NCBI GenBank assembly: GCA_049303835.1
Contig: JBAQNN010000003.1
Location: 192,769-256,768 of the forward strand
Origin: Minisyncoccia bacterium
Lineage (GTDB): Bacteria; Patescibacteriota; Minisyncoccia; Phycocordibacterales; UBA9973
DNA: 64,000 bases
Direction of reading: 5' to 3'
This document shows positions 4,475 through 52,007 of this stretch, piece after piece. Position 1 is the first letter of the stretch; every line of letters starts with the position of its first letter. The notes beneath the pieces are model-generated. The model was not told the DNA's origin. It ran no database searches and worked only from the letters and a program-made list of their open reading frames with translations. The translations under genes were made by a program, and so were the position numbers.

Positions 4475-4651
4475 TTTTTTTAATTTTAATTAAATTATAA
4501 GTGATAAGTTTCGACCATCATTTACTCTCTATAATATGACGTAGAGATAGACATATAATTACAACTTGCGATACAAGATCATAGAAAAACACAGCTGCGG
4601 TACAGCTCCATTGAAGACTTGAAAAATTAGAAACTAAAGATAAAGAAGTCG

Positions 4652-14402: not shown

Positions 14403-15815
14403 CTACTCGTCTAGGATATCAAAATCATCTGCCGGTGTTTTAGACACATTTTTATGTCGTCTTATAAAATAAACACCGCCCGCTGAAATTCCTATAAAAA
14501 CAAGGAAAATAATAGGAACAACCAATGACCGAGGGCTAGAATCATCCTTATTCTCTCCAAATATTGGGGTAGCCACTAAATTTTCCGAAAAAGAATCATC
14601 AACAGCGACATCAACTCTCTTCGCCACCGAAGAGGGTTCCTTCTTTGTGACAACTTTAACCGGAGCAACAAGATACGAATAACTAGAAACCAACTCCCTC
14701 TGTGGGGTCATCAATTTCAAAGTGTTTTTATCTTCAATAGAAAAACCACTGACTTTTGGCGAGATAATCATCTTTTTATTTGACAACAAAGTTGTATTTC
14801 TTGGTAAAGTAAAAACTTTGTAGTCACTTAAAAGTACCCAATTTGAAAGATCAGCTTCGTGCTCTGTCGCGTTTGTTATCTCTATAAAAAAATCGTTTGC
14901 TTCCCCCACTTTAGAAATTAAAATTTTGGGTTCAAGTACTTTGATCGTAATTTCAGTTGTTGCATCTGGGACATCCGCAAAACTATCTGGGTAATATTCA
15001 AAAGTTACAGTGTAATCACCTGGATAAAAATAAGTATGGGTAAATTTCTCATTATTGGTTACTTTTACTTCCCTAAAGTCCCCGTCTCCAAAATTCCAAT
15101 AATATCTTCCATGAGACAGCTTTTCCCCTAATGTCCCAGTACCTGTTCCTTGAATTGCAAAAGGAACACCGATATGAGCAAGTTTAGTGGAAATTATTTG
15201 AATTTTTGGTCTTTGAAGTTTTTGAGATACTCGTTTTTCCGATTCAGGTTCTTCTTCGTCATTTTCACCTGCAGCATCATTTTCATCAGCAGCATCATTT
15301 TCATCTTCATTATTTGATCCTCCTGAAGAAAGTTGGTTGACAGTTCCTCGCGTTGGGCCAGACACAACCCAGGAATTTCCATTTTTTTGTATACTTTTTC
15401 CTTCTGCTGGATTTGATACTGTGCTACAATTTTCCCCCCAACAAACTAAATCTACTATTTCCCCGGCTGTATTTTTTATCTGTATTGTGTTTGATTCAGT
15501 GAGAGTAAGTGTTTCCAAAACAATATCAGAATTACTAAAAGAAGTCCTAGAAATTATAAAATAACCCTGTGCAGCAATCGTCTTCCCCTCAAAATTTGGT
15601 TTTGAAACCAATGAACTAAAAGTAGCTCCCTCCAAAGTTTTTCTTTGAATGTACCAACCAGTCAATTCAACTGCTTCAGTTGAAGTATTATAAAGTTCTA
15701 AAAATCTTTCTCCTGTGGGAGACAATTGAACCTCATTTATGATGACTTCCGCTTGTGCTAAATTAAAACTGGACAAAAAGATCAACACCAAAATCAAAGT
15801 TAGTTTTTTAGACAT
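14403..15815 (-). CDS. Cell-surface protein with two lamin-tail (LTD) domains, acidic ENDA repeat linker and C-terminal TM anchor
   Basis: Signal peptide; VIINEV...ELYN...LTGW LTD signature twice; NNEDENDAADENDAAGENDEEE linker; C-terminal hydrophobic helix + RRHK. Confidence 0.55.
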   Translation of the reverse strand: MSKKLTLILVLIFLSSFNLAQAEVIINEVQLSPTGERFLELYNTSTEAVELTGWYIQRKTLEGATFSSLVSKPNFEGKTIAAQGYFIISRTSFSNSDIVLETLTLTESNTIQIKNTAGEIVDLVCWGENCSTVSNPAEGKSIQKNGNSWVVSGPTRGTVNQLSSGGSNNEDENDAADENDAAGENDEEEPESEKRVSQKLQRPKIQIISTKLAHIGVPFAIQGTGTGTLGEKLSHGRYYWNFGDGDFREVKVTNNEKFTHTYFYPGDYTVTFEYYPDSFADVPDATTEITIKVLEPKILISKVGEANDFFIEITNATEHEADLSNWVLLSDYKVFTLPRNTTLLSNKKMIISPKVSGFSIEDKNTLKLMTPQRELVSSYSYLVAPVKVVTKKEPSSVAKRVDVAVDDSFSENLVATPIFGENKDDSSPRSLVVPIIFLVFIGISAGGVYFIRRHKNVSKTPADDFDILDE

Positions 15816-33264: not shown

Positions 33265-33271
33265 AAAATAA

Positions 33272-34474
33272 TCAGGCTCTTCCTTTTTTGCTTTTTACTT
33301 TCGTTGCGTTGGAATGTATCAATTCCTCTAAAAATTTATCCAAATTGGCAGTCGCCACGCAGGAAACCTTATCAGCTCCGCCATAATATACAAACAATTC
33401 ATTATTCTTAACTATCGCCCCGCAAGAATATACCACGCCAGCCTTATACCCTTCATTTTCATACCATTCGTCCGGTTCCAAAATCGGTTGATTAGAATTA
33501 TATAAAATTTTCGTAGGGTCTTTTGTATCCAAAATCATCGCCCATAGTTTGTATCTGTGCATTTCACCCTTATCCATTTTATGATATAACACCAGCCATC
33601 CGTATTTCGTCTTGATAGGAGTAGGACCCACACCCCTTATGAGTCTGTCGCGAGCCCCCCACAAAGGACTCCCTTGGTGAACACTATGTATAAAATTACT
33701 TCCATTGAGTTCCTTTAAATCTTTCAAATAATCTATCATCACGTGTGGAGAAATACTGTGTAGAATTGCGTATTTATTATTTATTTTTTCCGGAAAAAGA
33801 ACCCAATTTTTGTGGATTTGGCCTGGGGGAGAAATCAAAACAGGTTTTTCCCAGTTCCAACGTCTTTGGATAAAATCATCCAGACTGATAGAAGTGAGGG
33901 CTATCCTTACAGATCCCCAACCATCAAAAGCTGTGTAAATCAAATACACCCTATCATCAAAAAGAGTCAGTCTGGGATCTTCACAGCCCCCTCCCCAACC
34001 GCCTCCGGAACAATAAGATATCTGCGGCACTATTTTTGATACAGGCTCTACCACTTTGTGATAATAAGCGAGTTCTTTTGAATTTTTTTCTATATTAAAA
34101 CCATTAAAACTTTTTGCGTAGCCTAATACTGAAATATCGTTTTCCCCAATGGCTCTGTAAATTATGTGAACTTTCCCATCGTGATAAAGAGCGGCAGGGT
34201 TAAAACTAGCTTTGGACTCCCAATACAAATTGCTTTCTGGTTCAATAATTGGATTTTTGTTTGATCTTTTTAAATCAAGCGAAGTCTTCTTTCGGGCTAA
34301 GGTCTTTGGCAGAATTTTCTTTATAATCTTTTTTTTCTTAACGAGAACTTTCTTGGTAGTTTTTTTAACCACCCTTTTAACTGCTTTTTTCGCGCTGCGC
34401 AATGTAGGCTTTTTTGTTAAAACTTTTTTTATTTTCTTCCCGCCGTGGCGGACAATCTTTTTAAGCGCGACCAT
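33272..34474 (-). CDS. GH130-family protein with ~75-aa Lys-rich N-terminal extension
   Basis: N-terminus KKIKKVLTKKPTLRSAKKAVKRVVKKTTKKVLVKKKKIIKK then GH130 core (NPIIEP...FNPAAL, GGCEDPRLT, VYYGGAD). Confidence 0.7.
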   Translation of the reverse strand: MVALKKIVRHGGKKIKKVLTKKPTLRSAKKAVKRVVKKTTKKVLVKKKKIIKKILPKTLARKKTSLDLKRSNKNPIIEPESNLYWESKASFNPAALYHDGKVHIIYRAIGENDISVLGYAKSFNGFNIEKNSKELAYYHKVVEPVSKIVPQISYCSGGGWGGGCEDPRLTLFDDRVYLIYTAFDGWGSVRIALTSISLDDFIQRRWNWEKPVLISPPGQIHKNWVLFPEKINNKYAILHSISPHVMIDYLKDLKELNGSNFIHSVHQGSPLWGARDRLIRGVGPTPIKTKYGWLVLYHKMDKGEMHRYKLWAMILDTKDPTKILYNSNQPILEPDEWYENEGYKAGVVYSCGAIVKNNELFVYYGGADKVSCVATANLDKFLEELIHSNATKVKSKKGRA

Positions 34475-36792: not shown

Positions 36793-37974
36793 CTAAACAA
36801 AATCTACCCTATGTTTCCTAAAAAGCATGACAAACACTCCTATCGCTACTAGAGCCATAAAAGCTGCAAAAATAAAGGCATAAATAGGATTAAACATCCA
36901 AAGCCCACCCGCAATCAATGAGGCAAGCAGGTAAATCAACCCCACAACCAGATTATACGCCCCCATGGCCGTAGCTCTCCTCTCTTTCTCCAGGTCAGCG
37001 ATAAATGCTCTGCCTTGCGCTGCATCTATGCTGTAGAAAATTCCGTACAAAATAAACAAAATTATAATTTCCCATTTTTCTTTGGCAAAAATAAACCCAA
37101 GGGACATAACAAGATAGGTCAGATATCCGAGAACAACGATATATTTTCGGCCAATTAAATCACCGAGCTTGCCGACCGGGACAGAGACAACGACAAAAGA
37201 AATATTGAAAAGAGCATAAAGTAAAACTACGTCTTTTATGACAAAACCAATGTCATAAGCTCTCAATAATAAAAATCCAAAACTAAAATAAGCGACGGAA
37301 AAGATACCCGATGGAATCAGAAATTTTTTGAATGATGGATTTAAAGTTTTCCAAGCTTCAAAAAGATTTTCTCTTTCATGCGGAATCCCCGGACGATCTT
37401 TCATCATAGAGAGCACGGCCACAGATATGGCCGCCGTGATTACCGCCATAATAAAAATTATATTAAAAGTATTTTTCTCTTGTCCCAGGAAAAGAAATAA
37501 AACATACACAATAAGCGGACCCAAGATGGCTCCCGCTTTATCCATAGCCTTGTGCACTGCGAAAGCATATCCCCTGGTGGGGCCTTCCGCTACTTCCGAA
37601 AGCCACGCATCTCTGGGTGGACCACGAAAACTTTTTCCCATACGTTCAATAATTCTAAAAGAAGCGAGCGCCACGACCGAAGAAGGAACCAAGAGCATCC
37701 CTTTTGCTAAGGTAGAAAAACCATACCCCAAAATAGTATATTTTTTTCTTTTTCCTGATCTGTCTGACAACCATCCAGAAAAATAATCCAAGGAAGAAGC
37801 GGAAAAATCTGCAAAGCCTTCCACTAGACCCAAAAGAGTGGCTGGAGCTCCCACAATCACCGTGAAAAACATAGAAAAAACAGAAAAAACAGCCTCCGAA
37901 CTGACATCCGTCAGGAAACTAACAATTCCTAATTTAAAAACATCAGGATGAACATTGAATGGCCTCTTTTCCAT
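36793..37974 (-). CDS. MFS transporter
   Basis: 12 predicted TM helices, loop 2-3 motif GWLSDRSGKRK. Confidence 0.75.
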   Translation of the reverse strand: MEKRPFNVHPDVFKLGIVSFLTDVSSEAVFSVFSMFFTVIVGAPATLLGLVEGFADFSASSLDYFSGWLSDRSGKRKKYTILGYGFSTLAKGMLLVPSSVVALASFRIIERMGKSFRGPPRDAWLSEVAEGPTRGYAFAVHKAMDKAGAILGPLIVYVLFLFLGQEKNTFNIIFIMAVITAAISVAVLSMMKDRPGIPHERENLFEAWKTLNPSFKKFLIPSGIFSVAYFSFGFLLLRAYDIGFVIKDVVLLYALFNISFVVVSVPVGKLGDLIGRKYIVVLGYLTYLVMSLGFIFAKEKWEIIILFILYGIFYSIDAAQGRAFIADLEKERRATAMGAYNLVVGLIYLLASLIAGGLWMFNPIYAFIFAAFMALVAIGVFVMLFRKHRVDFV

Positions 37975-40325: not shown

Positions 40326-40512
40326 AAAATAATATTTGTTTAAGTATAGGTCTTTAATTTCATCCTATATCTAAATAGCCACTTGGCTATTTTACTAAAA
40401 AATATAACCAGTATATCTAAACAAACAAAAAAGATAGAACGCACAGTTTCTATCTTCATAATTTTTTTATTATTAGACCACATATTTCTTGTCACTGAGG
40501 CGATTGTATTAC

Positions 40513-40597
40513 GGCAAATGTATATCAGGATAAATGGGTCGATTATTTTTCTAATTATCAAAATAACTATTAAAAACCTAATAAAAAATAAAACCCT
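40513..40597 (+). promoter_or_regulatory. Conserved ~80-bp upstream leader, copy A (paralogue of 46962-47040)
   Basis: cggcaaatgtatatcaggataaatgggtcgattat...aaaataactattaaaaac is ~88% identical to copy B. Confidence 0.6.
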
Positions 40598-41803
40598 ATG
40601 AAAAAATTAACCCTAATCAAAAAATCTCTGCCCGTATTTGCCCTTTTGGCTTTGGCGGTCGGTTCGTTCGGCATAACGCCACAAATAGTATACGCTGTTG
40701 CCATACCACCGTTAGTTGACCTCGGGACAGCCGGTGACTATACAATCTTAACAAAAACAGGAATTTCAACCACTGGCCCTACTAGTGTTGTTGGAGACAT
40801 GGGAGTAAGTCCCTCTGAAGCAACTTCTATAACAGGATTTGCATTAAGTCTTACAGAAGGAAGTCCCTTTTCCACCTCTGCACTTGTAGCTGGAAAAATA
40901 TATGCTCCGGGTTATGCAGCCCCTACCCCTACTAATCTAACTACAGCCATAAGCGACATGGAAACTGCTTACACGACAGCGAACGGCCTAGCTCCAGGAG
41001 TTACTGAACTCGGTGCTGGAAATATTGGCGGACTGACGATTGTTCCGGGAGTCTATAAATGGACTACCGGTGTCATAATACCAGCCGACGTTACTCTTTC
41101 TGGAAACGCAGACGATGTTTGGGTATTTCAAATAGCTCAAAATCTTGACATAAGTTCTGCTACACAGGTGCTTCTCAGTGGTGGTGCCCAAGCAAAAAAT
41201 ATTTTCTGGATAGTCGCCGGCCAAACAACTATTGGTACTACAGCTGTCTTTATTGGAAACATCTTGGACAAAACAGCAATCGTGTTAAATACTGGAGCAA
41301 CATTAAATGGCCGAGCATTGGCACAGACTGCAGTCACTTTGGATTCTAATTACGTTTCCAATGTGGGCAATAAAACAATTGGAACAATCACTGGAACAGT
41401 CGGCGGATTTGGAGTTTTGAAAGTGGACTCAATTGAAACGATAGACAATACAGCCATCGCTGATGGCACATTCGCAAGTGGCTGGGAATATATCTTCAAC
41501 ATAACAATTCCGTCCAATGAAACAAATCTTGCAATGAAATTCGCAGACTGGGTGCAAACCGGTGGCCCTGGAATAATTGCAACAGCTAATAACATCAGAA
41601 TCTCTTCTCTCCAAGCAGACAACGGAGGAACGACCGTCTTGTTGACTGGGGCAAATCTTTATTCATCCCCTACTCTTCACATGATTACCGACTTAAACCC
41701 TGCTACAGATGGAATTCAGATAAAGGTTAAAGTAGAAGTAGCTGTTCCAACAGGCTCTCTAAATGGTGCCTATACTACGAGCTACGGAGTAAAGACAAAT
41801 TAA
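40598..41803 (+). CDS. Secreted protein with DUF3494 (ice-binding-protein-like beta-helix) domain plus shared C-terminal beta domain
   Basis: Signal peptide; LGTAGDYTILTKTGISTTGPTSVVGDMGVSPSEATSITGF is the DUF3494 N-terminal signature; C-terminal 120 aa ~60% identical to 47041 gene. Confidence 0.7.
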   Translation: MKKLTLIKKSLPVFALLALAVGSFGITPQIVYAVAIPPLVDLGTAGDYTILTKTGISTTGPTSVVGDMGVSPSEATSITGFALSLTEGSPFSTSALVAGKIYAPGYAAPTPTNLTTAISDMETAYTTANGLAPGVTELGAGNIGGLTIVPGVYKWTTGVIIPADVTLSGNADDVWVFQIAQNLDISSATQVLLSGGAQAKNIFWIVAGQTTIGTTAVFIGNILDKTAIVLNTGATLNGRALAQTAVTLDSNYVSNVGNKTIGTITGTVGGFGVLKVDSIETIDNTAIADGTFASGWEYIFNITIPSNETNLAMKFADWVQTGGPGIIATANNIRISSLQADNGGTTVLLTGANLYSSPTLHMITDLNPATDGIQIKVKVEVAVPTGSLNGAYTTSYGVKTN

Positions 41804-41827
41804 AGAATAATTTAACTTTACAAATCT

Positions 41828-42166
41828 ATGAAACGCGAAATATTATTAAAATCTTTCTTGATACTCATTTTGATGGTTATTTTTGCTTCTTTCGCGCAAG
41901 CTTCTGAGACCAGAAATAATTTCTCTTCCGATGGCACGGCCCTTGGACCTGAGGTCAACGACCTGGCTATTGAAAATGATGTTCCAACTTCAACAACAAT
42001 AAGTCCTGTAAAGTCACCGAGCCTAACCGCCACAGTACTAGATGAGCTTGGTGACCTTGGCGCCAGTTCTTCGTTCTGGGTAGTCTTTATTCTTTTGATT
42101 CTATTTGTTTTCTTCATCTATCTATATAGACGACCGTTGGAAAATAGCAAAACTATACGAGTCTAA
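41828..42166 (+). CDS. Small secreted protein with C-terminal TM anchor and basic tail (paralogue of 48288 gene)
   Basis: MKREILLKSFLILILMV signal peptide shared with 48288 ORF; C-terminal hydrophobic helix + RRPLENSKTIRV. Confidence 0.45.
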   Translation: MKREILLKSFLILILMVIFASFAQASETRNNFSSDGTALGPEVNDLAIENDVPTSTTISPVKSPSLTATVLDELGDLGASSSFWVVFILLILFVFFIYLYRRPLENSKTIRV

Positions 42167-42185
42167 CCACCAACCCAAAAACAAA

Positions 42186-42228
42186 GCAACCCAGCCGCCC
42201 GAGGGCGACGGGGTTTTGTTTTTTTAGA
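42186..42228. terminator. Bidirectional intrinsic terminator between convergent genes
   Basis: cccagccgccc-gag-gggcgacgggg hairpin flanked by caaaaacaaa and ttttgttttttt. Confidence 0.6.
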
Positions 42229-42742
42229 CAGTTACTGTCTTTTTATATAAAGCTTTAATTTGCTCAAGCCCTCTATGCGCTTGCACAGAAATAGTATTTT
42301 TTGATTGTCCGGTTATCAAAGACATTTCTTTAAGCGTCAGATCTTGGACATAGCGCATTCGCATAATTTTTTGATATTTTTTTGGAATACGCGCGATCAA
42401 AAGAAGCGCTTTCTTTCCATCCAGAAGATTAATGAGATGTTCTTCTTCAGCTACTGGTTCAAAACCTTTTTCCATAAGAAGTTCAAGCGAACTTGTCTTA
42501 TGTTTCCGATATTGATCCACAATAAGATTATCCAAGACGTGATAAAGAAAAGCCTTCATGATATCAATCTTTCCTCCCTTTAAGAGGTAACTCCAAGTTT
42601 TTATGAAAGTATTTTGGACTAAATCTTGGCTAGCCGCTCTATCACTAACTTTAAAAAATGCCCGAGCGTTTAAGCCCTTTTCATAGTCATGATGGGCTAA
42701 GGTTAAAATATCCTTTATTTTTACCTCTTGTTTCTTGTTCAT
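42224..42742 (-). CDS. ECF-type sigma-70 family RNA polymerase sigma factor; start reassigned to MNKKQEV
   Basis: Region 2 (FIKTWSYLLKG...LYHVLDNLIVDQYRK) and region 4 HTH (TLKEMSLITGQSKNTISVQAHRGL). Confidence 0.8.
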   Translation of the reverse strand: MNKKQEVKIKDILTLAHHDYEKGLNARAFFKVSDRAASQDLVQNTFIKTWSYLLKGGKIDIMKAFLYHVLDNLIVDQYRKHKTSSLELLMEKGFEPVAEEEHLINLLDGKKALLLIARIPKKYQKIMRMRYVQDLTLKEMSLITGQSKNTISVQAHRGLEQIKALYKKTVTV

Positions 42743-42855
42743 GGCTTTGTTAACCAATAGAATATAGCCGTATGAGAGGGTTTTATATGACAGGACGTCT
42801 AGGTCCGAGAGAAAATACAACTTGCACATTATAGCACATCAAACCCCAAAAGCAC

Positions 42856-42884
42856 TGTAATCGTTTTAATAAAAGTACGTCATA
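42856..42884 (+). promoter_or_regulatory. ECF-like promoter motif TGTAAT-N16-CGTCAT ending 8 nt before the PAS gene ATG (leaderless-type)
   Basis: Resembles Bacillus sigma-W/X/M group consensus (TGAAAC-N16-CGTA); read directly. Confidence 0.3.
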
Positions 42885-42891
42885 TGGTTAT

Positions 42892-43452
42892 ATGAAAGAA
42901 AAAACAATAACAAATTTAAAAATTGCTCCTTCTGATTTTGTAAAAAGTTTCTGGGAAGAAAGTTGGACGTATATTAAAACTGTTGTGGACGTAGTACGAG
43001 AACCGATTTTGATTTTAGATAAAGATCTCCGGGTAATGGCAGCCAATGATTCTTTCTACAGAACTTTCCAGGTAGAAGTAAAAGATACGGAAAAAAAGAT
43101 TGTATATGATTTAGGAAATGGCCAATGGGATATCCCCGCCTTACGGAAACTACTGGAAGATATTTTACCCAAAAATACCTTTTTTAAGGGTTTTGAAGTG
43201 GCGCATGACTTTCCTTTGATTGGGCACAAGATAATGATCTTAAATGCCCGACGTATTCATTTCAAGGAAGATTTGTATTTCCAGCCCATCATCCTCCTTG
43301 CGATGGAAGATATCACTGAAATGATGGCCGTAGCTGAAATGCTCGCCCTGCACACCAATCAATTTGAGAAAGAAACGGCAAAAAAGACAGAAAAACTAGA
43401 ATCTAGTATTAAAGAAATGGAGAAAGAGATTAATAAACTAAAAAATAACTAG
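42892..43452 (+). CDS. PAS-domain protein divergent from the ECF sigma factor (possible regulator/anti-sigma partner)
   Basis: PAS core ILILDKDLRVMAANDSFYRTF...; coiled-coil C-terminus. Confidence 0.55.
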   Translation: MKEKTITNLKIAPSDFVKSFWEESWTYIKTVVDVVREPILILDKDLRVMAANDSFYRTFQVEVKDTEKKIVYDLGNGQWDIPALRKLLEDILPKNTFFKGFEVAHDFPLIGHKIMILNARRIHFKEDLYFQPIILLAMEDITEMMAVAEMLALHTNQFEKETAKKTEKLESSIKEMEKEINKLKNN

Positions 43453-43462
43453 AATCAGAAAT

Positions 43463-43771
43463 TTATTTTTTATCCTCTACCCTTTTTACCAGTCCATAAT
43501 CATCTCCAAAATCTTTTAATTCTTGATGCATGGCTGCCAAACCTTTTTTAAACCTTTCTTTATCATCGGCACAATCAATTTTTAGCCTTTCAATATCTTT
43601 GACTAGCCTGAGCCTGGTTTCCGGTAAAAATTTGGCTGCGAAGGTCAAAAAACCCCCAAGTTCCCGATCTCTGGCTTCTACTTCAGAAACACGATTGTTT
43701 AGTTTATCCATTGAAGACATATATCTATTTGTGGATAATAACACGTAATTTAAGGGTTTCCTAACGGACAT
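43463..43771 (-). CDS. Hypothetical protein (102 aa)
   Basis: Track ORF, no domain recognised. Confidence 0.3.
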   Translation of the reverse strand: MSVRKPLNYVLLSTNRYMSSMDKLNNRVSEVEARDRELGGFLTFAAKFLPETRLRLVKDIERLKIDCADDKERFKKGLAAMHQELKDFGDDYGLVKRVEDKK

Positions 43772-43937
43772 ACCAAATGTCCTTTAGAATATGGGTAGAA
43801 AGAGATGCATTTTACCGATTCGCGTTCTTGGTTATTCACTTTTTATACACTTTAATCTATTGACTTGTCAGTAAAGAGTTGTAAGGTGGGATAAATAGAT
43901 CGATTTTTATCAATTATTATTAGGGTTTTTAAAATAT

Positions 43938-45764
43938 ATGAGAAAATATCTTTTATATAGTTTGTTGGTTTTGACTTTCGGTTTTATGGTAGCAGGGACA
44001 ACGCAAGCTCAAGCTGTTCCGACATTATCCGCCCAAGACTTTGGGGTCATGGATTTTAGCGGGGTCATGGGATATTCTGCCGGTTTTCACCTAACTAACG
44101 GAGACTTAACGGGAGCTAGTATGGTAGTAAAATTGTACTCTGGAGACGCTTTACTACAAACTAATACTGCCTTGCCAGGTAAATTTACTGGTACTGATTT
44201 TTCTGGGCCGTTTGATGTCACAGGCACGTTTGACTATGTAGCTGATGGTTACTGGCAAAACGAAAGAGAAAGTGAATTCGGAGCAAACCTTGTTCCTACA
44301 AAAGTAGTCGCCACTGTTATATTAACAGATTCCACAATTCTGACAGCAGAAAACAATGTTTTAACCGGCGATCCATCTACTGTAATGCCAGCAGGATCTT
44401 TGGCTGCTGAAAATTTCAACGTAGTAGATTCTGATACAGGATTGGGAATACTTAAAGGTTTCACTTCCGGTTTTGCTTTAACTGGAGATACATGGAATCA
44501 CGCTACATCTGTAGTGGTTGAACTGTATGCAGGTTCAGAACTCCTTCAGACCGACACCGCGATTTTCCCTCAGTTTGGAACTATCGGTGGAACTCAAATT
44601 TCCGCACCGTTTGATGTGCTCGGAAATTTTGATTATGTTACCGACGGATACTGGACAAACGAGAGAGAGAGCGAGTACGGCAAGAACATAGCACCCACTA
44701 AAGTAAAAGCCACAGTAATACTTGAAAGTGGAAAAATACTTACAGCAGAAAACACCAATCTAACAGGAGTAATAACCACAATAATTCCACCTGGCATTCT
44801 TACAGCAGAAAATTTTAATGTAGTAGTAAATTCTAATACTGGCCCTACTACAGGAATCCTTACTGGTTATTCCACAGGGTTTGCGTTAACCGAGGCAACA
44901 TGGGCGGAAGTGGCTTCTGTCGTAGTAAAATTGTATGCAGGTACTAACCTATTGCAGACGGACACAGCAAATTTCCCTTTGTTCGGCACCATTGCCGGAA
45001 CTCAAATTTCCGCACCGTTTGATGTGTCTGGAACATTTAACTATGTAATAGATGGATATTGGACTAATACTCGAGAAAATGAGTACGGACAAACTGCCGC
45101 TCCTACAAAAGTTATAGCAATAGCTACTTTGATTAACGGCAAGATGATGACAGCTCAAAACACCCTACTTACTGGAGGAAATGCTGAGGAGGTAATGCCA
45201 GTTACTTTTGAAGTAAATTATATCGCGGGAGACAACGGAACTATTACTGGGTATACAAATCAAAATGTTCCTACTGGAGGCAACGCATCTTCTGTCACCG
45301 CGGTCGCTAACGATGGCTATCGTTTTAATGGCTGGAGCGACGGAGTAACCACTGAGGTCAGAACTGATACCAACGTCACCGCCGACCTTACCGTCACTGC
45401 AAACTTTGAAAGAAACCGATCTTCCAGTGGAGGAAGTAGAAGAGCTACTCCTGCTACCCCCGCTACTCCAGCAGTTCCCGGAGTAAGCCCAGCCATTCCT
45501 GCGACTCCCGCTACCCCTGGAGAAGTGCTCGGTGCTGAAAACTTTACTTTCACTCTTTTCTTGAAGATGGGGCCTCCCTACCTCAATAAACCGGAAGTAA
45601 TGGAACTTCAGAAATTCTTAAATACAGCCGGCTATGGCCCGCTCGTAGTTGATGGAAAATTTGGAGTGCTTACTAAAGCGGCTCTCGTTAAATTCCAAAT
45701 CGCAAATGGATTAGTAGGCGATGGCATAGTAGGACCTCTTACTAGAGCAGTCTTAAATAAATAA
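43938..45764 (+). CDS. Secreted cell-wall protein: three ~130-aa tandem repeats, Flg_new/InlB-B-like repeat, PATP linker, C-terminal peptidoglycan-binding (PG_binding_1) domain
   Basis: Signal peptide; triplicated FDV.G.FDYV.DGYW.NERESE...PTKV module; YRFNGWSDG; ATPATPATPAVPG; LQKFLNTAGYGPLVVDGKFG..T..A...FQ. Confidence 0.6.
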   Translation: MRKYLLYSLLVLTFGFMVAGTTQAQAVPTLSAQDFGVMDFSGVMGYSAGFHLTNGDLTGASMVVKLYSGDALLQTNTALPGKFTGTDFSGPFDVTGTFDYVADGYWQNERESEFGANLVPTKVVATVILTDSTILTAENNVLTGDPSTVMPAGSLAAENFNVVDSDTGLGILKGFTSGFALTGDTWNHATSVVVELYAGSELLQTDTAIFPQFGTIGGTQISAPFDVLGNFDYVTDGYWTNERESEYGKNIAPTKVKATVILESGKILTAENTNLTGVITTIIPPGILTAENFNVVVNSNTGPTTGILTGYSTGFALTEATWAEVASVVVKLYAGTNLLQTDTANFPLFGTIAGTQISAPFDVSGTFNYVIDGYWTNTRENEYGQTAAPTKVIAIATLINGKMMTAQNTLLTGGNAEEVMPVTFEVNYIAGDNGTITGYTNQNVPTGGNASSVTAVANDGYRFNGWSDGVTTEVRTDTNVTADLTVTANFERNRSSSGGSRRATPATPATPAVPGVSPAIPATPATPGEVLGAENFTFTLFLKMGPPYLNKPEVMELQKFLNTAGYGPLVVDGKFGVLTKAALVKFQIANGLVGDGIVGPLTRAVLNK

Positions 45765-45788
45765 TCTAAATAAAGATTTTTACTCACA

Positions 45789-45822
45789 AAGCCCTACCTT
45801 TACAGGTAGGGCTTTGTTTGTT
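45789..45822 (+). terminator. Intrinsic terminator
   Basis: aagccctacc-tttaca-ggtagggctt perfect 10-bp stem followed by tgtttgtt. Confidence 0.7.
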
Positions 45823-45833
45823 ATAATAGTCCA

Positions 45834-46844
45834 ATGTTTTCATGGCTAAAAAAACATTTTATTCCACATCCTGAAAATGATCACCGCCCTCATATTTTGC
45901 GAGACCAAAGCACTCGGAACATTATCGCCATCATTCTATTTTTAGAATTATTTTCTTTTGTCCTTCCAACTGTCTCAAATATAAATATGCTAGATGGCAT
46001 GGCGGCAGTGTTGCCTTCAGTTTTAAGTGACCTGACCAACGTAGAGAGACAATCACAAAGATTACCCATCCTTTCTGTAAACTCTCTTTTGAACAAAGCA
46101 GCGGAGATGAAGGCGCAGGACATGGCTTTAAAAGGATATTTTGCTCACACCAGCCCCGAAGGACTTACTCCGTGGTATTGGATATTGCTTTCCGGATATA
46201 AATATCAATACGCCGGAGAGAACCTCGCAGTTAATTTTCAAGATTCAAAAGACGTGACCGAAGCCTGGCTCAATAGCCCCACCCACAAAGCAAATATCGT
46301 CAAAGGAAATTATACAGAAATGGGTACGGGGATTGCGAATGGTATGTACAAAGGAAGAGAGGCTGTGTTTGTAGCCCAAGTGTATGCAAACCCGATGCCT
46401 AAAACTTTTCCTAAGGCAGTTGTAGTTGAAACAAAGCCATCCCCGACACCTAAGATTGTCGCAGTTTCTGAACCTACCAAAGAAACGGAAAATGTCTTGG
46501 GCGCAGAAGTTTCTACGACCGCCTCCTTGGCAGTCAATCCAGATGTTCAAATTCTCAACATAGAAAATAAAAATTACACCGAAACACAACCGACTTTCTG
46601 GCAGAAACTTTTGGCTTCACCCAGAAACACCACCAATGTGCTTATGGCTATAATCTTTAGCATTGTTGCCTTGGCCCTGCTTCTCTATATCATAATAAAA
46701 ATCAGAAGCCATCATGTAGATCTGCTCACAAATGGATTGGCGATGCTCGCTATCATCGGTGCAATTTTTATCGCGAACTATCAGTATAGTTACAGAAGTA
46801 TGGTGATAACCCAGGGTCTGGATTATTCCGTAGAGAGTAAATAA
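45834..46844 (+). CDS. CAP/SCP/PR-1 superfamily domain protein with N- and C-terminal TM segments
   Basis: GYFAHTSPEG...GENLA...EAWLNSPTHKANI CAP motifs. Confidence 0.6.
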   Translation: MFSWLKKHFIPHPENDHRPHILRDQSTRNIIAIILFLELFSFVLPTVSNINMLDGMAAVLPSVLSDLTNVERQSQRLPILSVNSLLNKAAEMKAQDMALKGYFAHTSPEGLTPWYWILLSGYKYQYAGENLAVNFQDSKDVTEAWLNSPTHKANIVKGNYTEMGTGIANGMYKGREAVFVAQVYANPMPKTFPKAVVVETKPSPTPKIVAVSEPTKETENVLGAEVSTTASLAVNPDVQILNIENKNYTETQPTFWQKLLASPRNTTNVLMAIIFSIVALALLLYIIIKIRSHHVDLLTNGLAMLAIIGAIFIANYQYSYRSMVITQGLDYSVESK

Positions 46845-46961
46845 TTTTCGTATAAAAAATAAAAATCACTTGTTTTAAACTTGGGACCTCCAGGGGCTAT
46901 TTATCTCTTTTTATATTTTGTATTACACCACACATTCCCTGTCATCAAACCTCCCCTATTT

Positions 46962-47040
46962 CGGCAAATATATATCAGGATAAACTGGTCGATTATCTAT
47001 CTAATTATTAAAATAACTATTAAAAACTAACAAAAAAATT
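46962..47040 (+). promoter_or_regulatory. Conserved ~80-bp upstream leader, copy B
   Basis: cggcaaatatatatcaggataaactggtcgattat...aaaataactattaaaaac; ~88% identical to 40513-40597. Confidence 0.6.
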
Positions 47041-48270
47041 ATGAAAACAATATCAAAAATAGTTAAAAAATCTACGGCTGGTCTTATGCTTTTGGCATTT
47101 GCAGTGGGCTCTTTTGGTCTCTCTCCAAATAAATTTGCACTGGCAGCCACCACATGGGACACGACAGGCGCTTACGTTATAAACATGAATTATCTTGGAA
47201 CAGATCATCCTCATGATATGTCTTTAGTTCAAGATATTTCAGACAATCTTACTGGTAACGGCGGGAGTCCAGCCGGAGCCAATGTATATACTTGGACAAT
47301 AACTTCTGGTGGAGTAGTGGGTGATACCATTGATTTCTTGGCTGACTACACAGCGACCCCAGATGCAGTGACACCCCAAACAACTCTGCACATCGTCGGA
47401 ACAATTGCCCCGGATGGGACGATGTCCGGCACATGGTCCGACAACTTCCAAGCAGAAGCTAGAACAGGCACATTTTCTACAGCAAGTGGGGCAGTAGTAG
47501 CGGATCCAATTATAGTTGAAGGAAATGTCATCACCAATCCCGCAACCGCAATCACCATTACTGATGCGACCCTAAATGGCACAAATGGTGCAAGTGACGC
47601 TCTCGGACACTCTTTCTGGGCTTCGCTAAACACATTTAGTACTGCTAGTCCATCAATCCCGGTTGGTGTTTACTCAACTCCTGATTTGGGAGTGATTGCA
47701 GCCAATACCCCCTTCTCTGCTCTTCTTTCTTCTACTGGCATAACAGTAACTCCAGATACTACGTATTACTTCTCAGCTTGGTCTAATGTTGCAGGTGTAT
47801 GGTATCCTGGTGAAGTTTTGAGTTTCACTACTTTAGGAACAGGAGGAGAAATCGGAGGTGAAGTGGTACCAGGTAACGGAATCCTTGAAGTTACCTCTAT
47901 TGAAATGACAGACACTACAGCCACAGCAAACAATTCGTTTGAAGATGGTTGGGAATATGTATTCAACATCACCGTCCCTACAGATGAGGCAAACCTCTCA
48001 ATGAAATTCGCAGACTGGGTAAGAACTGGCGGAAGTGAAATTATTCCTGCAGGTGGCAACATGAGAATCTCTTCTCCACAAGCAAACAATAGTGGAGCAA
48101 CAGTTCCGATCACCACAGCTAATACTTATTCTACTCCAGCACTTGTCATGACTACTGATCTTAACCCATCACTAGATGGCATACAGGTCAAAGTTATTGT
48201 AGAGGTAAAAATACCTACCGGCACAATGAGTGGCTCTTACACGACAAATTATGGTGTTAAGTCAGAATAA
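47041..48270 (+). CDS. Secreted beta-rich protein, paralogue of the 40598 gene (shared C-terminal domain, different N-terminal domain)
   Basis: Signal peptide AGLMLLAFAVGSFGLSP ~ LALAVGSFGITP; C-terminal W-E-Y-V/IFNIT...MKFADWV.TGG...GIQ.KV.VEV segment conserved. Confidence 0.6.
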   Translation: MKTISKIVKKSTAGLMLLAFAVGSFGLSPNKFALAATTWDTTGAYVINMNYLGTDHPHDMSLVQDISDNLTGNGGSPAGANVYTWTITSGGVVGDTIDFLADYTATPDAVTPQTTLHIVGTIAPDGTMSGTWSDNFQAEARTGTFSTASGAVVADPIIVEGNVITNPATAITITDATLNGTNGASDALGHSFWASLNTFSTASPSIPVGVYSTPDLGVIAANTPFSALLSSTGITVTPDTTYYFSAWSNVAGVWYPGEVLSFTTLGTGGEIGGEVVPGNGILEVTSIEMTDTTATANNSFEDGWEYVFNITVPTDEANLSMKFADWVRTGGSEIIPAGGNMRISSPQANNSGATVPITTANTYSTPALVMTTDLNPSLDGIQVKVIVEVKIPTGTMSGSYTTNYGVKSE

Positions 48271-48287
48271 TAATATAGACAAAAATT

Positions 48288-48707
48288 ATGAAACAAAAAA
48301 TATTATTAAAATCCTTCCTAATGCTCACCTTGATGGTGGCCTTTGGGGCGCAAGTATATGCATCGGAAGTGACAGGAACCCTCTCTTCAAGTACCCAAAA
48401 TGAAGGAGGTGGATCCGGATCAGAAATTACTGGCACACTAGACAACGGAAATATAGCCGGTACTGTCGGTAGTGGTGGAAGTTCTGGCGGAAGCAGTAGC
48501 GGAAGTAGTCGTCGTACGGGAGGGCAAGTATTAGGAGCATCGGATGACAATACCGGAGAAGTACTCGGAGCAACATACACCCCGGGCTTTCCTACTACTG
48601 GTCTCGGAAACAAAGCTACTCCTGATTCCACAAACCTTATGGCCTTGATTCTAGTTGTCGCCACTCTGACGATGTACGCTTATCACAAGATGAAGATAAA
48701 TGCATAA
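48288..48707 (+). CDS. Small secreted Gly/Ser-rich protein with FPTTG motif, C-terminal TM helix and basic tail (candidate sortase substrate)
   Basis: MKQKILLKSFLMLTLMV signal peptide; GGSGS repeats; ...PGFPTTGLGNKATPDSTN-LMALILVVATLTMYAY-HKMKINA. Confidence 0.45.
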   Translation: MKQKILLKSFLMLTLMVAFGAQVYASEVTGTLSSSTQNEGGGSGSEITGTLDNGNIAGTVGSGGSSGGSSSGSSRRTGGQVLGASDDNTGEVLGATYTPGFPTTGLGNKATPDSTNLMALILVVATLTMYAYHKMKINA

Positions 48708-49278
48708 AAGGCTTAATTCCAGAATATTGCTTTTTATCCTAGTGCCCACATGTCTAGTCTTTCTTTTCTTGGGCTTCTTCATCACCAATTCCAAAAATCC
48801 AAACGATAATATTGCTCCCTTGTTTGCCTCTCCGGAAAAGATAATTCCTATACGAATTACAATTCCGAGTATAAAAGTAGAGGCTCTGATAAAACCCGTA
48901 GGACTGACAAAACTAAAAACAATGGAGTCTCCAGAAGAACCCCTAGATACTGCTTGGTTTAAATTAGGAGCAAGCCCCGGAGAAAAAGGCAGCTCCGTAA
49001 TTGCTGGACATAGGGGTTGGAAAACTGGGAGAGCAATCTTTGATGATTTGGACGAAATTCAACTTGGCGATAAAGTGTACGTAGAGAATGAGAAAGGAGA
49101 CATACTAGTTTTTGTTGTGCGCGAAATGCGCGTATATGGTGCTCTTGAAATAGTGCCAGAAGTTTGGAACAAAAATGATGCCGCTTATTTGAACCTCATC
49201 ACCTGCTCAGGTGACTGGAATGCATCAACCGGAACTTCCGACAAACGCTTAGTCGTGTTTACAGACTTAGCTACTTAA
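48700..49278 (+). CDS. Sortase-family transpeptidase (class E/F-like)
   Basis: N-terminal TM anchor, catalytic His (IAGHRGW), LNLITCSGDW TLXTC Cys motif, downstream Arg. Confidence 0.65.
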   Translation: MHKRLNSRILLFILVPTCLVFLFLGFFITNSKNPNDNIAPLFASPEKIIPIRITIPSIKVEALIKPVGLTKLKTMESPEEPLDTAWFKLGASPGEKGSSVIAGHRGWKTGRAIFDDLDEIQLGDKVYVENEKGDILVFVVREMRVYGALEIVPEVWNKNDAAYLNLITCSGDWNASTGTSDKRLVVFTDLAT

Positions 49279-49280
49279 AA

Positions 49281-49311
49281 AAATAAACCTCCCAAGGAGG
49301 TTTATTTTTTT
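49281..49311. terminator. Bidirectional intrinsic terminator
   Basis: aaacctcc-caa-ggaggttt perfect 8-bp stem with A-run before and T-run after. Confidence 0.75.
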
Positions 49312-49343
49312 ATCTGTTTTATTAACAAAGCTACAAATTTTTT

Positions 49344-52007
49344 TTACTTATTATTTAATTTTGCTCGGGTAAGAGGCCCTACTATACCGTCGCCTACTAA
49401 TCCGTTTGCGATTTGGAATTTGATAATCGCAGCTTTTGTCATGGGGCCAAATTTTCCATCAACTACAAGCAGGCCATAGCCAGCTGTGTTTAAGAATTTT
49501 TGCAGTTCTTCAGCTTCAGAATCTACCATTCCAGATTTAAGGATCTTCGTGAATATAAATTTGAGTGCAGTTGAAGCAAGATTTATCCCACATGGTCTGC
49601 CTGTTGCCGGACTGAATAAAAATCCTTCTTTGCATCCAGCATTTAAATGAGTTGGCAAGTATGAACCAGAGGATTGTCGCCTAGTTGGTTCTGGTTCTGG
49701 AGCACCACAGACACCTCCTATGTCTATCCCCGTCTCATCTTGATTTTGAATTCCATCAGAACAAGTCGGATCTACTGGTGGAGCTTCCTCTTCAAAAATA
49801 GCGAGGGCGGTCATGTAGTCTAAGGCAGAATCTTTACCTCCTACTGTAGTCACGACTCCAGTAGTAATATCTATCGTCACTAGATCAGTAGAAGAACCAA
49901 AATCATTTCTTGTGGCAAAAAGGATACCATTCGGATCAAATTTAGCGGAAGAGATAACTTCCCCATTGTCCACAGCATACGCAGATGATTCTATTATTAC
50001 ACCAGTGTCAGGATTAACTTTGAAAAATCCCGAACTTTCCTCATCAAAAATATACAGATTATCTTCAGAGTCAAAAGCTATGCCGCCACCTCCGCCTGCT
50101 CCAATATCAGATTGACCTTGGCCCACGAGAGTGGCCGTGCAATCTTCAGTATTAATAGTATAAAGAGAATTAGAGTTTTCATTCCATCCTGATCTAGCAT
50201 ATAGACGACCATCAGACCTAAAAGCGATATCAGCAAATCCAAAACCGATTGAACACTTTAAGGTGGCTATTCCTGTAGTCGTATCTATTGTAAAAAGACT
50301 TTTAGCTGCACCGCCATCGGGATCAGTATTGGAAGTTACTCCATAAAGATTTCCAGATATTGGATCAAAATCCATACCGTTTATGTTGTACTCCATTAGA
50401 CCAATAGTGCTAGCCACTTCTCCTGTGTTTGGGTCAAGCGTAAACAAATTTGTCTCTGTGTTTTGCCCAGCCCCATTCGCGCCGTACAACACAATTGTAC
50501 CTTCAAAAGAACCTGGTGGTGAAAAATTAATTGTTCCGTTGCTGTCTATATAATTATTTACATTGCTGGCCGTGGCATTATTAGTAAATGCTCCGTCTAG
50601 GAAAGTGATAGTTAAATTGTTTACATCATCAATATCTGCATGAGCTGTGGCATTTCCTGTAAACGTCAACGTAGCTGTTTCTCCGGCCCCATCTACCGTC
50701 ATGACAGCAGTAAGTCCCGCCGGTTTATTTGTTAACGCGTAATGAATACCTTCAGATAGAGTGCCCCCTGCGTTGACGAAAGTATCATTAAATAGGGAGG
50801 CCGTTCTACTTCCAGAGAGTGAGCCATCGTTCACATATGGCTCATGGAAATTCCCAGCATATAACAAATCCAACTTTCCCAATAAAATTGAAACATTATC
50901 ACTAAAAGCTTTATTCGTCACAGCCAAATCTAAATAAGCATCATTGTTGAATAGTCCGGTGGTTATGGAAAATGCGCTACCAAAAGGATTTCCAGACATT
51001 GTATAATCTACTGCCGCACCAAATGTGCCATCACCTACTCCAAAAAGGATTGAGACAACATCTTCTCCGATATCACTTACTACTGCTAAATCTAAATAAG
51101 CATCATGATTGAATAGCCCGGTGATCATGGAAGTAGGATTTCCATTTATTCCAGTTTCACTGATTACATAACTGACTGCTGTCCCAAATGTGCCATCACC
51201 TGCCCCGAGGAGAATTGAGACATTTTTTTCATAAAAACTCGTCACCGCCAGATCAAAAAATGTATCACCATTAAAATCACCAGAAATAACAAAAGAAGGA
51301 TTGTCTCCAGCTCTATAATTTGCCGGATTGGCAAACGTACCATCACCTACCCCTAAGAGAACTGAAACGTTGTTAAGAAAAGAATTTTCTTTTACTACTA
51401 CTAAATCAAGAAAAGAATCACCATTAAAGTCGCGAGTGGTGACAGAAGCTGGATCAGTTCCAACTGCATAATTGACCGCTGCACCAAATGTGCCATCACC
51501 TGCCCCGAGAAGAATTGAGAGGCCACCTACCCAACTCGTCACCGCCAGATCTAAAAAGGCATCGTTGTTAAATAATCCAGTGATTACGGTGTTAGGACCA
51601 TCCCCAACCGCATAATTAACCGCCGTGCCAAATGTGCCATCACCTGCCCCGAGAAGAATTGAAACATTGTCACTGGCATTATTTGTCACCGCTAAATCTA
51701 AAAAGGCATCATCGTTGAATAGTCCGGCGATTATGGAGGTAGGATTATCTCCAGCTCCATAATTAACCGCCGTGCCAAATGTGCCATCACCTGCCCCGAG
51801 AAGAATTGAAACGTTGTCACTGAGGTTATTCGCCACTGCCAAATCTAAAAAGGCATCGTTATTAAATAATCCAGTGATTATGGAGGCAGGATTATCTCCA
51901 ACTCCGTAATTGACCGCTGGTAAAAAAAACCTCTCCGCCGATACAGTAGGAGCAAAAGAGAAAGTTAACATAAAAACAAAAACAATTATAATAAAATATT
52001 TTTTCAT
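49344..52007 (-). CDS. Large secreted FG-GAP/VCBS-repeat (beta-propeller) surface protein with C-terminal peptidoglycan-binding domain
   Basis: Signal peptide; ~9 repeats of NYxxGDNPxSIITGLFNNDAFLDLAV...SILLGAGDGTFG; C-terminal PG_binding_1 module ~80% identical in DNA to that of the 43938 gene. Confidence 0.65.
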   Translation of the reverse strand: MKKYFIIIVFVFMLTFSFAPTVSAERFFLPAVNYGVGDNPASIITGLFNNDAFLDLAVANNLSDNVSILLGAGDGTFGTAVNYGAGDNPTSIIAGLFNDDAFLDLAVTNNASDNVSILLGAGDGTFGTAVNYAVGDGPNTVITGLFNNDAFLDLAVTSWVGGLSILLGAGDGTFGAAVNYAVGTDPASVTTRDFNGDSFLDLVVVKENSFLNNVSVLLGVGDGTFANPANYRAGDNPSFVISGDFNGDTFFDLAVTSFYEKNVSILLGAGDGTFGTAVSYVISETGINGNPTSMITGLFNHDAYLDLAVVSDIGEDVVSILFGVGDGTFGAAVDYTMSGNPFGSAFSITTGLFNNDAYLDLAVTNKAFSDNVSILLGKLDLLYAGNFHEPYVNDGSLSGSRTASLFNDTFVNAGGTLSEGIHYALTNKPAGLTAVMTVDGAGETATLTFTGNATAHADIDDVNNLTITFLDGAFTNNATASNVNNYIDSNGTINFSPPGSFEGTIVLYGANGAGQNTETNLFTLDPNTGEVASTIGLMEYNINGMDFDPISGNLYGVTSNTDPDGGAAKSLFTIDTTTGIATLKCSIGFGFADIAFRSDGRLYARSGWNENSNSLYTINTEDCTATLVGQGQSDIGAGGGGGIAFDSEDNLYIFDEESSGFFKVNPDTGVIIESSAYAVDNGEVISSAKFDPNGILFATRNDFGSSTDLVTIDITTGVVTTVGGKDSALDYMTALAIFEEEAPPVDPTCSDGIQNQDETGIDIGGVCGAPEPEPTRRQSSGSYLPTHLNAGCKEGFLFSPATGRPCGINLASTALKFIFTKILKSGMVDSEAEELQKFLNTAGYGLLVVDGKFGPMTKAAIIKFQIANGLVGDGIVGPLTRAKLNNK

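Follow-up and report, generated by a model that had tools for sequence, protein, structure and literature searches.

The stretch of 64,000 nucleotides (nt) analyzed here, referred to as the window, comes from a Minisyncoccia bacterium (assembly GCA_049303835.1, contig JBAQNN010000003.1, positions 192,769 to 256,768) and carries an island of surface-protein genes. Two cassettes, A and B, each consist of a conserved non-coding leader, a gene for a large secreted protein and a gene for a small protein with a C-terminal hydrophobic helix and basic tail. Between the cassettes lie genes for an extracytoplasmic function (ECF) sigma factor and a divergently transcribed PAS protein, and a sortase gene follows cassette B. 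A preliminary description, made from the letters alone, had listed the cassettes, leaders, sigma factor, PAS protein and sortase, and each of them was found at the place it gave (Table 1). Large B, small B and the sortase form a single operon, since 8 nt are common to the last two genes and the sortase gene is closed off by a strong terminator. Loci of other genomes are cited below by number (L001 and so on).

Table 1. Features of the two cassettes and of the genes between and behind them, in window coordinates
Feature	Position	Strand	Remarks
Cassette A upstream box	40471..40486	+	TATTAGACCACATATT; about -60 to -45 from the predicted start site; conserved between the leaders and in 7 other genomes
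Cassette A ECF-type promoter	40489..40515	+	-35-like TTGTCA (40489-40494), 17-nt spacer, -10-like CGGC (40512-40515); invariant alignment columns
Cassette A conserved leader	40516..40597	+	predicted 5' untranslated region (5' UTR) of ~76 nt; GGTCG box 40537-40541
Large A	40598..41803	+	Sec signal peptide, DUF3494/Ice_binding beta-helix, linker GTITGTVGG, C-terminal beta-sandwich (C-domain)
Small A	41828..42166	+	signal peptide, degenerate signature SETRNNFSS, C-terminal FWVVFILLILFVFFIYLY helix and basic tail; no sorting motif
ECF sigma factor	42224..42742	-	172 residues from the likely start at 42742; longest open reading frame (ORF) reaches 42829
ECF-type promoter of sigma gene	42767..42792	-	TGTCAT-N16-CGGC, ending 24 nt before ATG; putative autoregulation
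Sigma-70-like promoter of sigma gene	42828..42860	-	TTACAG-N18-TGcTATAAT (extended -10); consensus match only
ECF-type promoter of PAS gene	42856..42881	+	TGTAAT-N16-CGTC, ending 10 nt before ATG
PAS protein	42892..43452	+	stand-alone PAS with C-terminal coiled coil; candidate sensor or sigma partner
Cassette B upstream box	46921..46936	+	TATTACACCACACATT
Cassette B ECF-type promoter	46939..46965	+	CTGTCA (TGTCA 46940-46944), 17-nt spacer, CGGC (46962-46965)
Cassette B conserved leader	46966..47040	+	predicted 5' UTR; GGTCG box 46987-46991
Large B	47041..48270	+	signal peptide, N-terminal beta-rich region without family, linker GEIGGEVVPG, C-domain
Small B	48288..48707	+	signal peptide, SEVTGTLSS tip, G/S-rich spacer, two G.VLGA motifs, PGFPTTG, helix, basic tail HKMKINA
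Sortase	48700..49278	+	N-terminal membrane helix; His104, Cys169, Arg183; 8-nt overlap with small B
Intrinsic terminator	49276..49312	+	17-bp stem and T-run; end of the large B-small B-sortase operon

The two large proteins, of 401 residues (large A) and 409 residues (large B), resemble each other only in their last 134 residues, which are 60% identical (E=1e-52) and correspond to the common C-terminal domain already noticed in the preliminary description. This C-domain comprises residues 268-401 of large A (nt 41399-41800) and residues 276-409 of large B (nt 47866-48267). The N-terminal part of large A is a DUF3494 domain (residues 50-253, nt 40745-41356), as had also been proposed; it matches Pfam family PF11999 (Ice_binding) with E=1.4e-72 and 244 bits against a gathering threshold of 28.7, covering profile positions 1-207 of 208. 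Against the ice-binding equivalog IBP_CFB (NF045625) large A scores 225 bits, below the cut-off of 400, and ice binding is therefore not implied. Large B and small B have no match in Pfam or NCBIfam, and the N-terminal beta-rich region of large B recurs in other Paceibacteria. Neither large protein carries a sorting signal of its own.

The C-domain matches no Pfam or NCBIfam family, and a profile of its two copies retrieves relatives from metagenomes only, none of them annotated by Pfam. Among 1.84 billion representatives searched with HMMER, 750 proteins match at E<=1e-3 and 371 at E<=1e-30, the figure of about 750 being a count of representative clusters at 50% identity. Of the best 150 matches, about 147 end with the domain, and the proteins are 112-1550 residues long. 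In L001 the orthologous large gene is broken by a run of N at about 7830-7935, and the 214-residue protein P0013 is a fragment because this scaffold gap interrupts the gene; many of the short stand-alone matches to the C-domain are likely similar fragments from short contigs. When one genome per species was scanned, every C-domain locus (48/48) lay in Patescibacteria of the Paceibacteria/Parcubacteria group. The parts that precede the domain include DUF3494, the module of large B, TIG, right-handed beta-helix and Ig/cadherin-like domains and many regions without a family, so that N-terminal swapping on a constant C-terminal domain, suggested from the two window copies, extends across the family. 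No sequence relative of the C-domain was found in the PDB. AlphaFold, given an alignment, models the domain as an all-beta sandwich with a pLDDT (predicted local distance difference test) of 93.5, and Foldseek comparisons agree weakly with this model; a single-sequence prediction of large B reached a pLDDT of 32, and the alignment-based model of the C-domain is the usable one. Directly before the domain the large proteins contain a sequence of the form (I)GG(E/T)V(T)GG, which is a short strand in the model. Invariant residues of the domain include those in GW.Y.FNIT.P, F..W and SS.QA. A lysine acceptor of the pilin type was considered and ruled out, as the domain has no invariant lysine. The C-domain is a real beta-sandwich family that is unnamed and unannotated.

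Repeats of about 130 residues in a 608-residue protein of the window (43938-45764) are found as N-terminal modules of C-domain proteins elsewhere (L007, L008, L014, L017, L018, L034 and L053; phmmer E 1e-29 to 1e-48), and surface modules are therefore shuffled among anchoring domains in this lineage. The 608-residue protein itself ends in PG_binding_1, as does an 887-residue FG-GAP protein (49344-52007).

The small proteins, of 112 residues (small A) and 139 residues (small B), can be aligned with each other over the signal-peptide region only, at 47% identity over 47 residues (E=6e-10; DNA 80% identical over 56 nt), which bears out the paralogy of their signal peptides. The sorting-signal-like architecture that had been attributed to both is present in one. 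In small B, the mature N-terminus SEVTGTLSS (nt 48363-48389) is followed by FPTTG (residues 101-105, nt 48588-48602), a helix (residues 117-132) and a basic tail; it is the sole ORF in the window with a complete sorting signal, and, as had been pointed out, it adjoins the sortase gene. Small A has no xPxTG motif before its helix, which is of the WFW subtype found in loci without sortase. Because it belongs to this motif-less, membrane-helix subtype and its N-terminal signature is degenerate, small A is not a sorting-signal protein; its match to the NCBIfam EF2685/EF0750 family of sortase-dependent small proteins is weak and below threshold (22.7 bits, cut-off 47).

In a set of 55 non-redundant large genes, 45 are directly followed on their own strand, usually after a gap of 7-30 nt, by a gene for a small protein recognizable by its N-terminal signature. 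These proteins have 107-217 residues and consist of a signal peptide, the tip motif, a low-complexity stretch rich in Gly, Ser and Thr, a C-terminal helix and a basic tail. A first census, which relied on a hydrophobicity filter and missed six sortase-type anchors, found AxA directly followed by SEVTGTLSS in 39 of 41 small proteins. Two classes of tail can be distinguished, one with PGFP(N/x)(A/T)G before the helix and the other with a very hydrophobic helix of the WFWIILLLL type and no motif. A sortase gene lies within 3 kb of 15 of the 19 small proteins of the motif class and of 1 of the 24 motif-less ones (Fisher p=3.5e-7, after three miscalls had been corrected by eye). The window has one cassette of each class, the membrane-helix type in A and the sorting signal with sortase in B. 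In both L016 and L024, one small gene stands behind a tandem pair of large genes. In L002, the most distant branch, the C-domain gene has next to it a small sortase substrate that lacks the tip signature and is flanked by a sortase on either side. The earlier proposal of a regulated, sortase-processed surface module thus stands insofar as the gene set recurs in many Paceibacteria and the motif tracks the sortase, but the link to the sortase applies to cassette B only.

The possibility that the small protein is an anti-sigma factor was ruled out by its cleavable signal peptide and by a cytoplasmic tail of only 5-10 residues. A further motif, x-V-L-G-A-(E/S), occurs in the window at 45522, 46491, 48525 and 48558 (+ strand) and is confined to secreted proteins of the island, namely the 608-residue PG_binding_1 protein, a CAP/YkwD-like protein and small B, which has it twice. 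It is preceded by an S-R-R-x-T stretch in small B and in the 608-residue protein. In other genomes, nearly every small protein of the sortase type has it too, some 10-20 residues N-terminal to the sorting motif. A role in processing or in spanning the wall is conceivable.

The sortase matches Pfam PF04203 with 78.4 bits against a cut-off of 26.6 (E=5e-22), and its segments IAGH104, LITC169 and KR183 align with the catalytic residues of the solved sortases 4d70 and 2kw8. Cleavage of the sorting signal of small B by this enzyme is predicted, strongly so by analogy.

The leaders of the two cassettes (40507-40589 and 46957-47039) align without a gap over 83 nt at 87% identity, as the preliminary description had indicated. 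A gapped alignment adds a second similar block about 20 nt upstream of the leader repeat (TATTAsACCACAyATT..yTGTCA), and the similarity reaches about 35 nt further 5' than had been described. A pattern search allowing up to 3 mismatches found two copies only in the window (0 expected in shuffles). With the two leaders as query, nhmmer located the element directly 5' of a large gene in L007, L009, L016, L022, L019, L008 and L040. The leader therefore recurs 5' of large-gene orthologues in no fewer than 7 genomes besides this one. Aligned leaders present, in order, the terminator hairpin of the upstream gene, an invariant TTGTCA, 17 nt, CG(G/T)C, about 21 nt and an invariant GGTCG. The upstream region in L001 has no full-length leader and has the promoter-type boxes alone in common with the others.

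The simplest account of two similar leaders would be a recent local duplication or gene conversion, with the sigma, PAS and sortase genes as coincidental neighbours. The window does contain just two copies, 6.45 kb apart, but the coding DNA of the two C-domains is 64% identical, and the four-fold sites of their conserved codons are 28% identical, which is essentially random and indicates saturation. Each type of cassette also has its own orthologues elsewhere: L016 and L024 for type A, with its ice-binding protein (IBP) and membrane-type small protein, and L006 and L011 for type B, with its sortase. The saturated sites together with these orthologues indicate that the cassettes are old paralogues, and because the non-coding leader is nevertheless 87% identical, it must be maintained by selection. 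The leader and its boxes recur 5' of orthologous genes in other genomes, and the promoter boxes are common to the sigma and PAS genes. A recent tandem duplication as the sole source of the similarity, which the preliminary description had named as its own refuting case, is contradicted by these observations, and we regard it as hardly credible.

The boxes of the leader have the form of an ECF-type promoter. The strict motif TGTCA-N16-18-CGNC has three occurrences in the window, one each ahead of large A, large B and the sigma gene (the last on the minus strand), and when the -35 element is relaxed to TGT(C/A)A, a fourth site appears before the PAS gene. Across all loci, the motif precedes 9 of 15 PAS genes, 8 of 17 sigma genes and 19 of 52 large genes (60%, 47% and 37%), compared with 15 of 690 other genes (2.2%; p=7e-27). 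Viewed by position, 28 of 101 motif matches fall within the 1.4% of sequence that lies 5' of large or sigma genes (p=5e-28). In L055 and L058, which had been selected through PAS homology alone, the PAS, ECF sigma and sortase genes are again found together with DUF3494 surface proteins, and the motif precedes the PAS gene, the sigma gene and a DUF3494 gene. The -35-like and -10-like boxes recur before the sigma and PAS genes, in support of the earlier view that one signal serves both copies.

Conservation also covers the ~76 nt that separate the -10-like box from the start codon, with the invariant GGTCG among them, and this could be expected of a structured regulatory RNA, such as a riboswitch or attenuator, in the 5' UTR. 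A scan with Rfam found nothing in the leader (2 tRNAs were its only matches), the folding energies were no better than those of shuffled sequences (z -0.3 and -0.55), the consensus fold of 12 leaders contained 4 pairs, none with a compensatory change, and the frame of a possible leader peptide is not conserved. As neither Rfam, nor folding, nor alignment folding gave a structural signal, the riboswitch idea was dropped, and an RNA leader is considered very improbable. On its sequence, the leader is an ECF-type promoter, TGT(C/A)A-N16-17-CG(G/T)C, followed by an unstructured 5' UTR of ~76 nt.

Other readings of the leader were tried and rejected. The leader peptide ATG GGT CGA TTA TTT TTC TAA of cassette A has a start codon that neither cassette B nor other genomes preserve. 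With TTGTCA taken as a sigma-70 element, there is no TATAAT-like hexamer 16-18 nt downstream, and a generic scan was no richer than in shuffles. Were CGGCA the -35 and GGTCG the -10 element, the spacer would measure about 23 nt, and this pairing was discarded for that reason. The GGTCG box lies about 21 nt 3' of the -10-like CGGC in every large-gene leader and does not occur in the promoters of the sigma and PAS genes. No supported RNA structure and no conserved reading frame includes it, and it may be the binding site of a second regulator. In the sigma-PAS intergenic region of L055 (5708-6003), two copies of TTTTATTACAC(A/T)(A/G)ACATTACA resemble the TATTAsACCACAyATT box, which hints at a conserved operator common to distant Patescibacteria. 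A relaxed match to all three boxes (TGTAAT-N16-CGTC...GGTCG) occurs at 4512-4563 (- strand), about 38 nt 5' of an ORF for a 121-residue membrane protein (4109-4474), which adjoins a response regulator (4652-5050) and a PAS histidine kinase (5068-6567). This could be a further member of the regulon or a chance match, relaxed two-box matches occurring about once per 17 kb of single strand.

The sigma factor, which had been placed between the cassettes together with the divergent PAS gene, is confirmed as an ECF-type protein by TIGR02937 (56.4 bits, cut-off 42.9) and by Pfam r4_2 (34.8 against 25.7), with a borderline score for r2 (23.3 against 24); no equivalog or named ECF group scored above its cut-off. 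The start at ATG 42742 is the one called on L054, an independent contig of the same organism, and the longest ORF (from 42829) probably starts 87 nt too early, taking in the gene's own ECF-type promoter. For the PAS protein, a sequence search of the PDB gave nothing useful; its sequence agrees at 100% identity with an NCBI entry derived from the metagenome-assembled genome of a 'Minisyncoccia bacterium'. The case for the neighbouring sigma factor as the reader of the shared promoter is moderately strong, given the autoregulation-like placement of the motif and the co-location of the genes. That the PAS protein acts as a partner of this sigma factor may be proposed with weak to moderate confidence.

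We consider it rather probable that these genes represent a two-part surface-display system, specific to the Paceibacteria/Minisyncoccia lineage, under an ECF sigma factor. Its architecture, its conservation, the sharing of the promoter and the coupling of motif and sortase are established at the level of sequence and comparative statistics. In such a system, the sigma factor would recognize TGT(C/A)A(T)-N16-17-CG(G/T)C before its own gene, the PAS gene and both cassettes, and because the same promoter stands before all four, a single signal would turn on regulators and cassettes together. The PAS protein would be a co-regulated partner and is a candidate for a sensor or an anti-sigma partner. 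Each cassette would act as an operon whose first gene supplies a Sec-secreted cargo and whose second gene supplies a small anchor. The cargo would combine an interchangeable N-terminal part (DUF3494 in A, another beta-rich region in B, and Ig, TIG or beta-helix domains elsewhere) with a constant part formed by the last ~135 residues. After removal of its signal peptide, the anchor would expose the near-invariant SEVTGTLSS tip on a flexible Gly/Ser/Thr stalk. Anchor A would be fixed by a plain membrane helix, and anchor B by its PGFPxTG signal, which the co-transcribed sortase of cassette B would cleave to join the anchor to the cell wall. The cargo, without an anchor of its own, would dock its C-terminal sandwich onto the anchor tip, probably by addition of a beta-strand.

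Attachment of the cargo to the small anchor through docking is proposed with moderate confidence. The main rival to docking is a C-domain that binds wall or glycan in the manner of a carbohydrate-binding module (CBM) and anchors the large proteins alone, the small proteins being independent stalks or spacers that merely share the operon. We judge this rival unlikely, as it leaves unexplained the near-universal adjacency of large and small genes with gaps of 7-30 nt, the invariant SEVTGTLSS tip on a low-complexity protein, and the single small gene after two tandem large genes. A pilus-like fibre, built by donor-strand exchange or from sortase-linked small proteins and carrying the large protein as tip adhesin, has to be weighed as well. 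Donor-strand-complemented pilins and archaeal cannula/DUF1102 subunits are enriched in the fold lists of the C-domain, the N-terminal strand of the small protein has a V-x-G-x-L pattern with a similar strand motif before the C-domain, and a sortase is present. Yet the structural scores are modest, the C-domain offers no invariant lysine as pilin-type acceptor, the small protein has no folded domain able to accept a strand, and half of the small proteins are motif-less and far from any sortase; a fibre is thus improbable. The docking proposal in its most specific form, in which the C-domain captures the SEVTGTLSS strand of a wall-linked or membrane stalk, would make the system a hybrid of donor-strand and sortase mechanisms under a phylum-specific pair of ECF sigma factor and cytoplasmic PAS protein, and is put forward as a tentative possibility.

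Several observations weigh against the two-part system or parts of it. Ten of the 55 large genes are not followed by a small gene with the signature, and the tip signature of small A itself is degenerate (SETRNNFSS). About 40-60% of the large, sigma and PAS genes have no strict promoter match, the sigma gene of L007, L008, L009 and L040 has a sigma-70-type promoter (TTGACT-N17-TATAAT) only, and the GGTCG box and the upstream TATTAsACCACA box are not accounted for. The best class of the sortase is F (NF033748), yet its score of 109.8 bits is below the cut-off of 166, and no class is assigned. The PAS family reaches far beyond the module, with more than 3,000 clusters widespread in Patescibacteria, and the PAS protein is for this reason better viewed as a general regulator than as a module-specific part.

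The closest described system is that of the Csc/WxL clusters of Firmicutes, in which CscA-D form operons of secreted proteins only (Siezen et al. 2006, PMC1534035). CscC proteins vary at the N-terminus, share a C-terminal WxL domain and have no covalent anchor, and CscD is an unusually small LPxTG protein of 90-140 residues that has been proposed as a wall anchor for the other Csc proteins (PMC1534035). The cassettes resemble these clusters as an operon of secreted proteins, with large proteins that are variable at the N-terminus and constant at the C-terminus and an adjoining tiny anchor (139 residues in small B). No match to WxL or DUF916 was found in Pfam searches of large A, large B and 10 homologues, and because these domains are absent, the module is an analogue of Csc/WxL and not a member. 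The differences are considerable: the C-domain is an unrelated, unnamed beta-sandwich; the small proteins share an invariant mature N-terminus, whereas CscD proteins share no sequence; in half of the anchors a membrane helix takes the place of the sortase signal; and the phylum is another one, with an ECF sigma factor in place of catabolite control. With classical LPXTG proteins, cassette B has in common the signal peptide, xPxTG, hydrophobic helix, basic tail and a His/Cys/Arg sortase next door; it differs in that the functional domain and the sorting signal are on two polypeptides and in the motif PGFP(N/x)(A/T)G, with Phe for Leu.

In cellulosomes, interchangeable cargo with a constant dockerin binds the cohesin of a sortase-anchored scaffoldin. 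The likeness consists of interchangeable cargo, one constant terminal module and a wall-anchored partner, docking being a proposal in the present case; unlike in cellulosomes, there is no Pfam match to cohesin or dockerin, and the anchor is a short disordered stalk with a conserved tip of 9 residues. Similarity to donor-strand fibre subunits (chaperone-usher pilins and archaeal cannulae/DUF1102) does not go beyond the fold (7-17% identity); an outer membrane, a chaperone and an usher are all lacking here, and strand insertion is hypothetical. SigX, SigM and SigW of Bacillus subtilis are autoregulated group IV ECF sigma factors with promoters of the form TGTAAC-N17-CGAC. The sigma factor of the window likewise has two domains, a -35 element ending A(A/C)-like, a CGxC -10 element at 16-17 nt and a putative regulon of envelope proteins, and a tandem of sigma-70 and ECF promoters stands before the sigma factor's own gene. 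It differs from the Bacillus systems in having no membrane anti-sigma gene beside it and instead a co-located, co-regulated cytoplasmic PAS/coiled-coil protein.

For the candidate phyla radiation (CPR), an enrichment of sortases and the occurrence of surface proteins bearing sortase motifs are on record (PMC6744442, PMC5220378). We found no description in the literature of the C-domain or the SEVTGTLSS anchors, of DUF3494 together with a sortase, or of an ECF regulon or ECF promoter motif for Patescibacteria. The novelty claimed for the DUF3494 family must be qualified, since a simpler arrangement, DUF3494 linked directly to LPxTG, exists elsewhere in Patescibacteria. DUF3494 proteins with their own LPxTG-type sorting signal occur in L022, L055 and L058, and these direct fusions demonstrate that DUF3494 cargo can be anchored in one piece. 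The proteins in L055 (8133-10022) and L058 (6605-8479) adjoin PAS, sigma and sortase genes, consist of a beta-helix, DUF7507 (listed as CLIPPER_2) and an SpaA-like prealbumin fold, and end in LPNTGF or LPTTGF.

Elsewhere in the window, two adjacent GH130 genes of the mannoside phosphorylase type (31312-34474 and 36793-37974, - strand) lie near a major facilitator superfamily (MFS) transporter, and one of the products has an N-terminal extension of about 330 residues; they represent a notable capacity for sugar salvage in a bacterium with a small genome. A secreted-looking protein with two Lamin Tail Domains and a PKD domain is encoded outside the island (14403-15815, - strand).

Patescibacteria are ultra-small, mostly uncultured bacteria that are thought to live attached to other cells. 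To our knowledge, little is understood of the way in which their surface is assembled and controlled. The C-domain, an unannotated family of about 750 clusters, marks a set of modular surface proteins, and its partner family of tiny anchors combines an invariant tip with two alternative modes of anchoring. To these are added a putative ECF promoter motif and regulon for Patescibacteria, with a very conserved PAS protein as the likely partner. The sequence signatures can be used to find genes of surface display and of the regulon in thousands of metagenome-assembled genomes (MAGs), and DUF3494 'ice-binding-like' domains are placed in a sortase-linked surface context that is not tied to cold. 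The system may be a widespread and undescribed way for these bacteria to decorate their surface and, if the proposal is true, display by strand capture could provide these episymbionts with their regulated 'grappling' surface.

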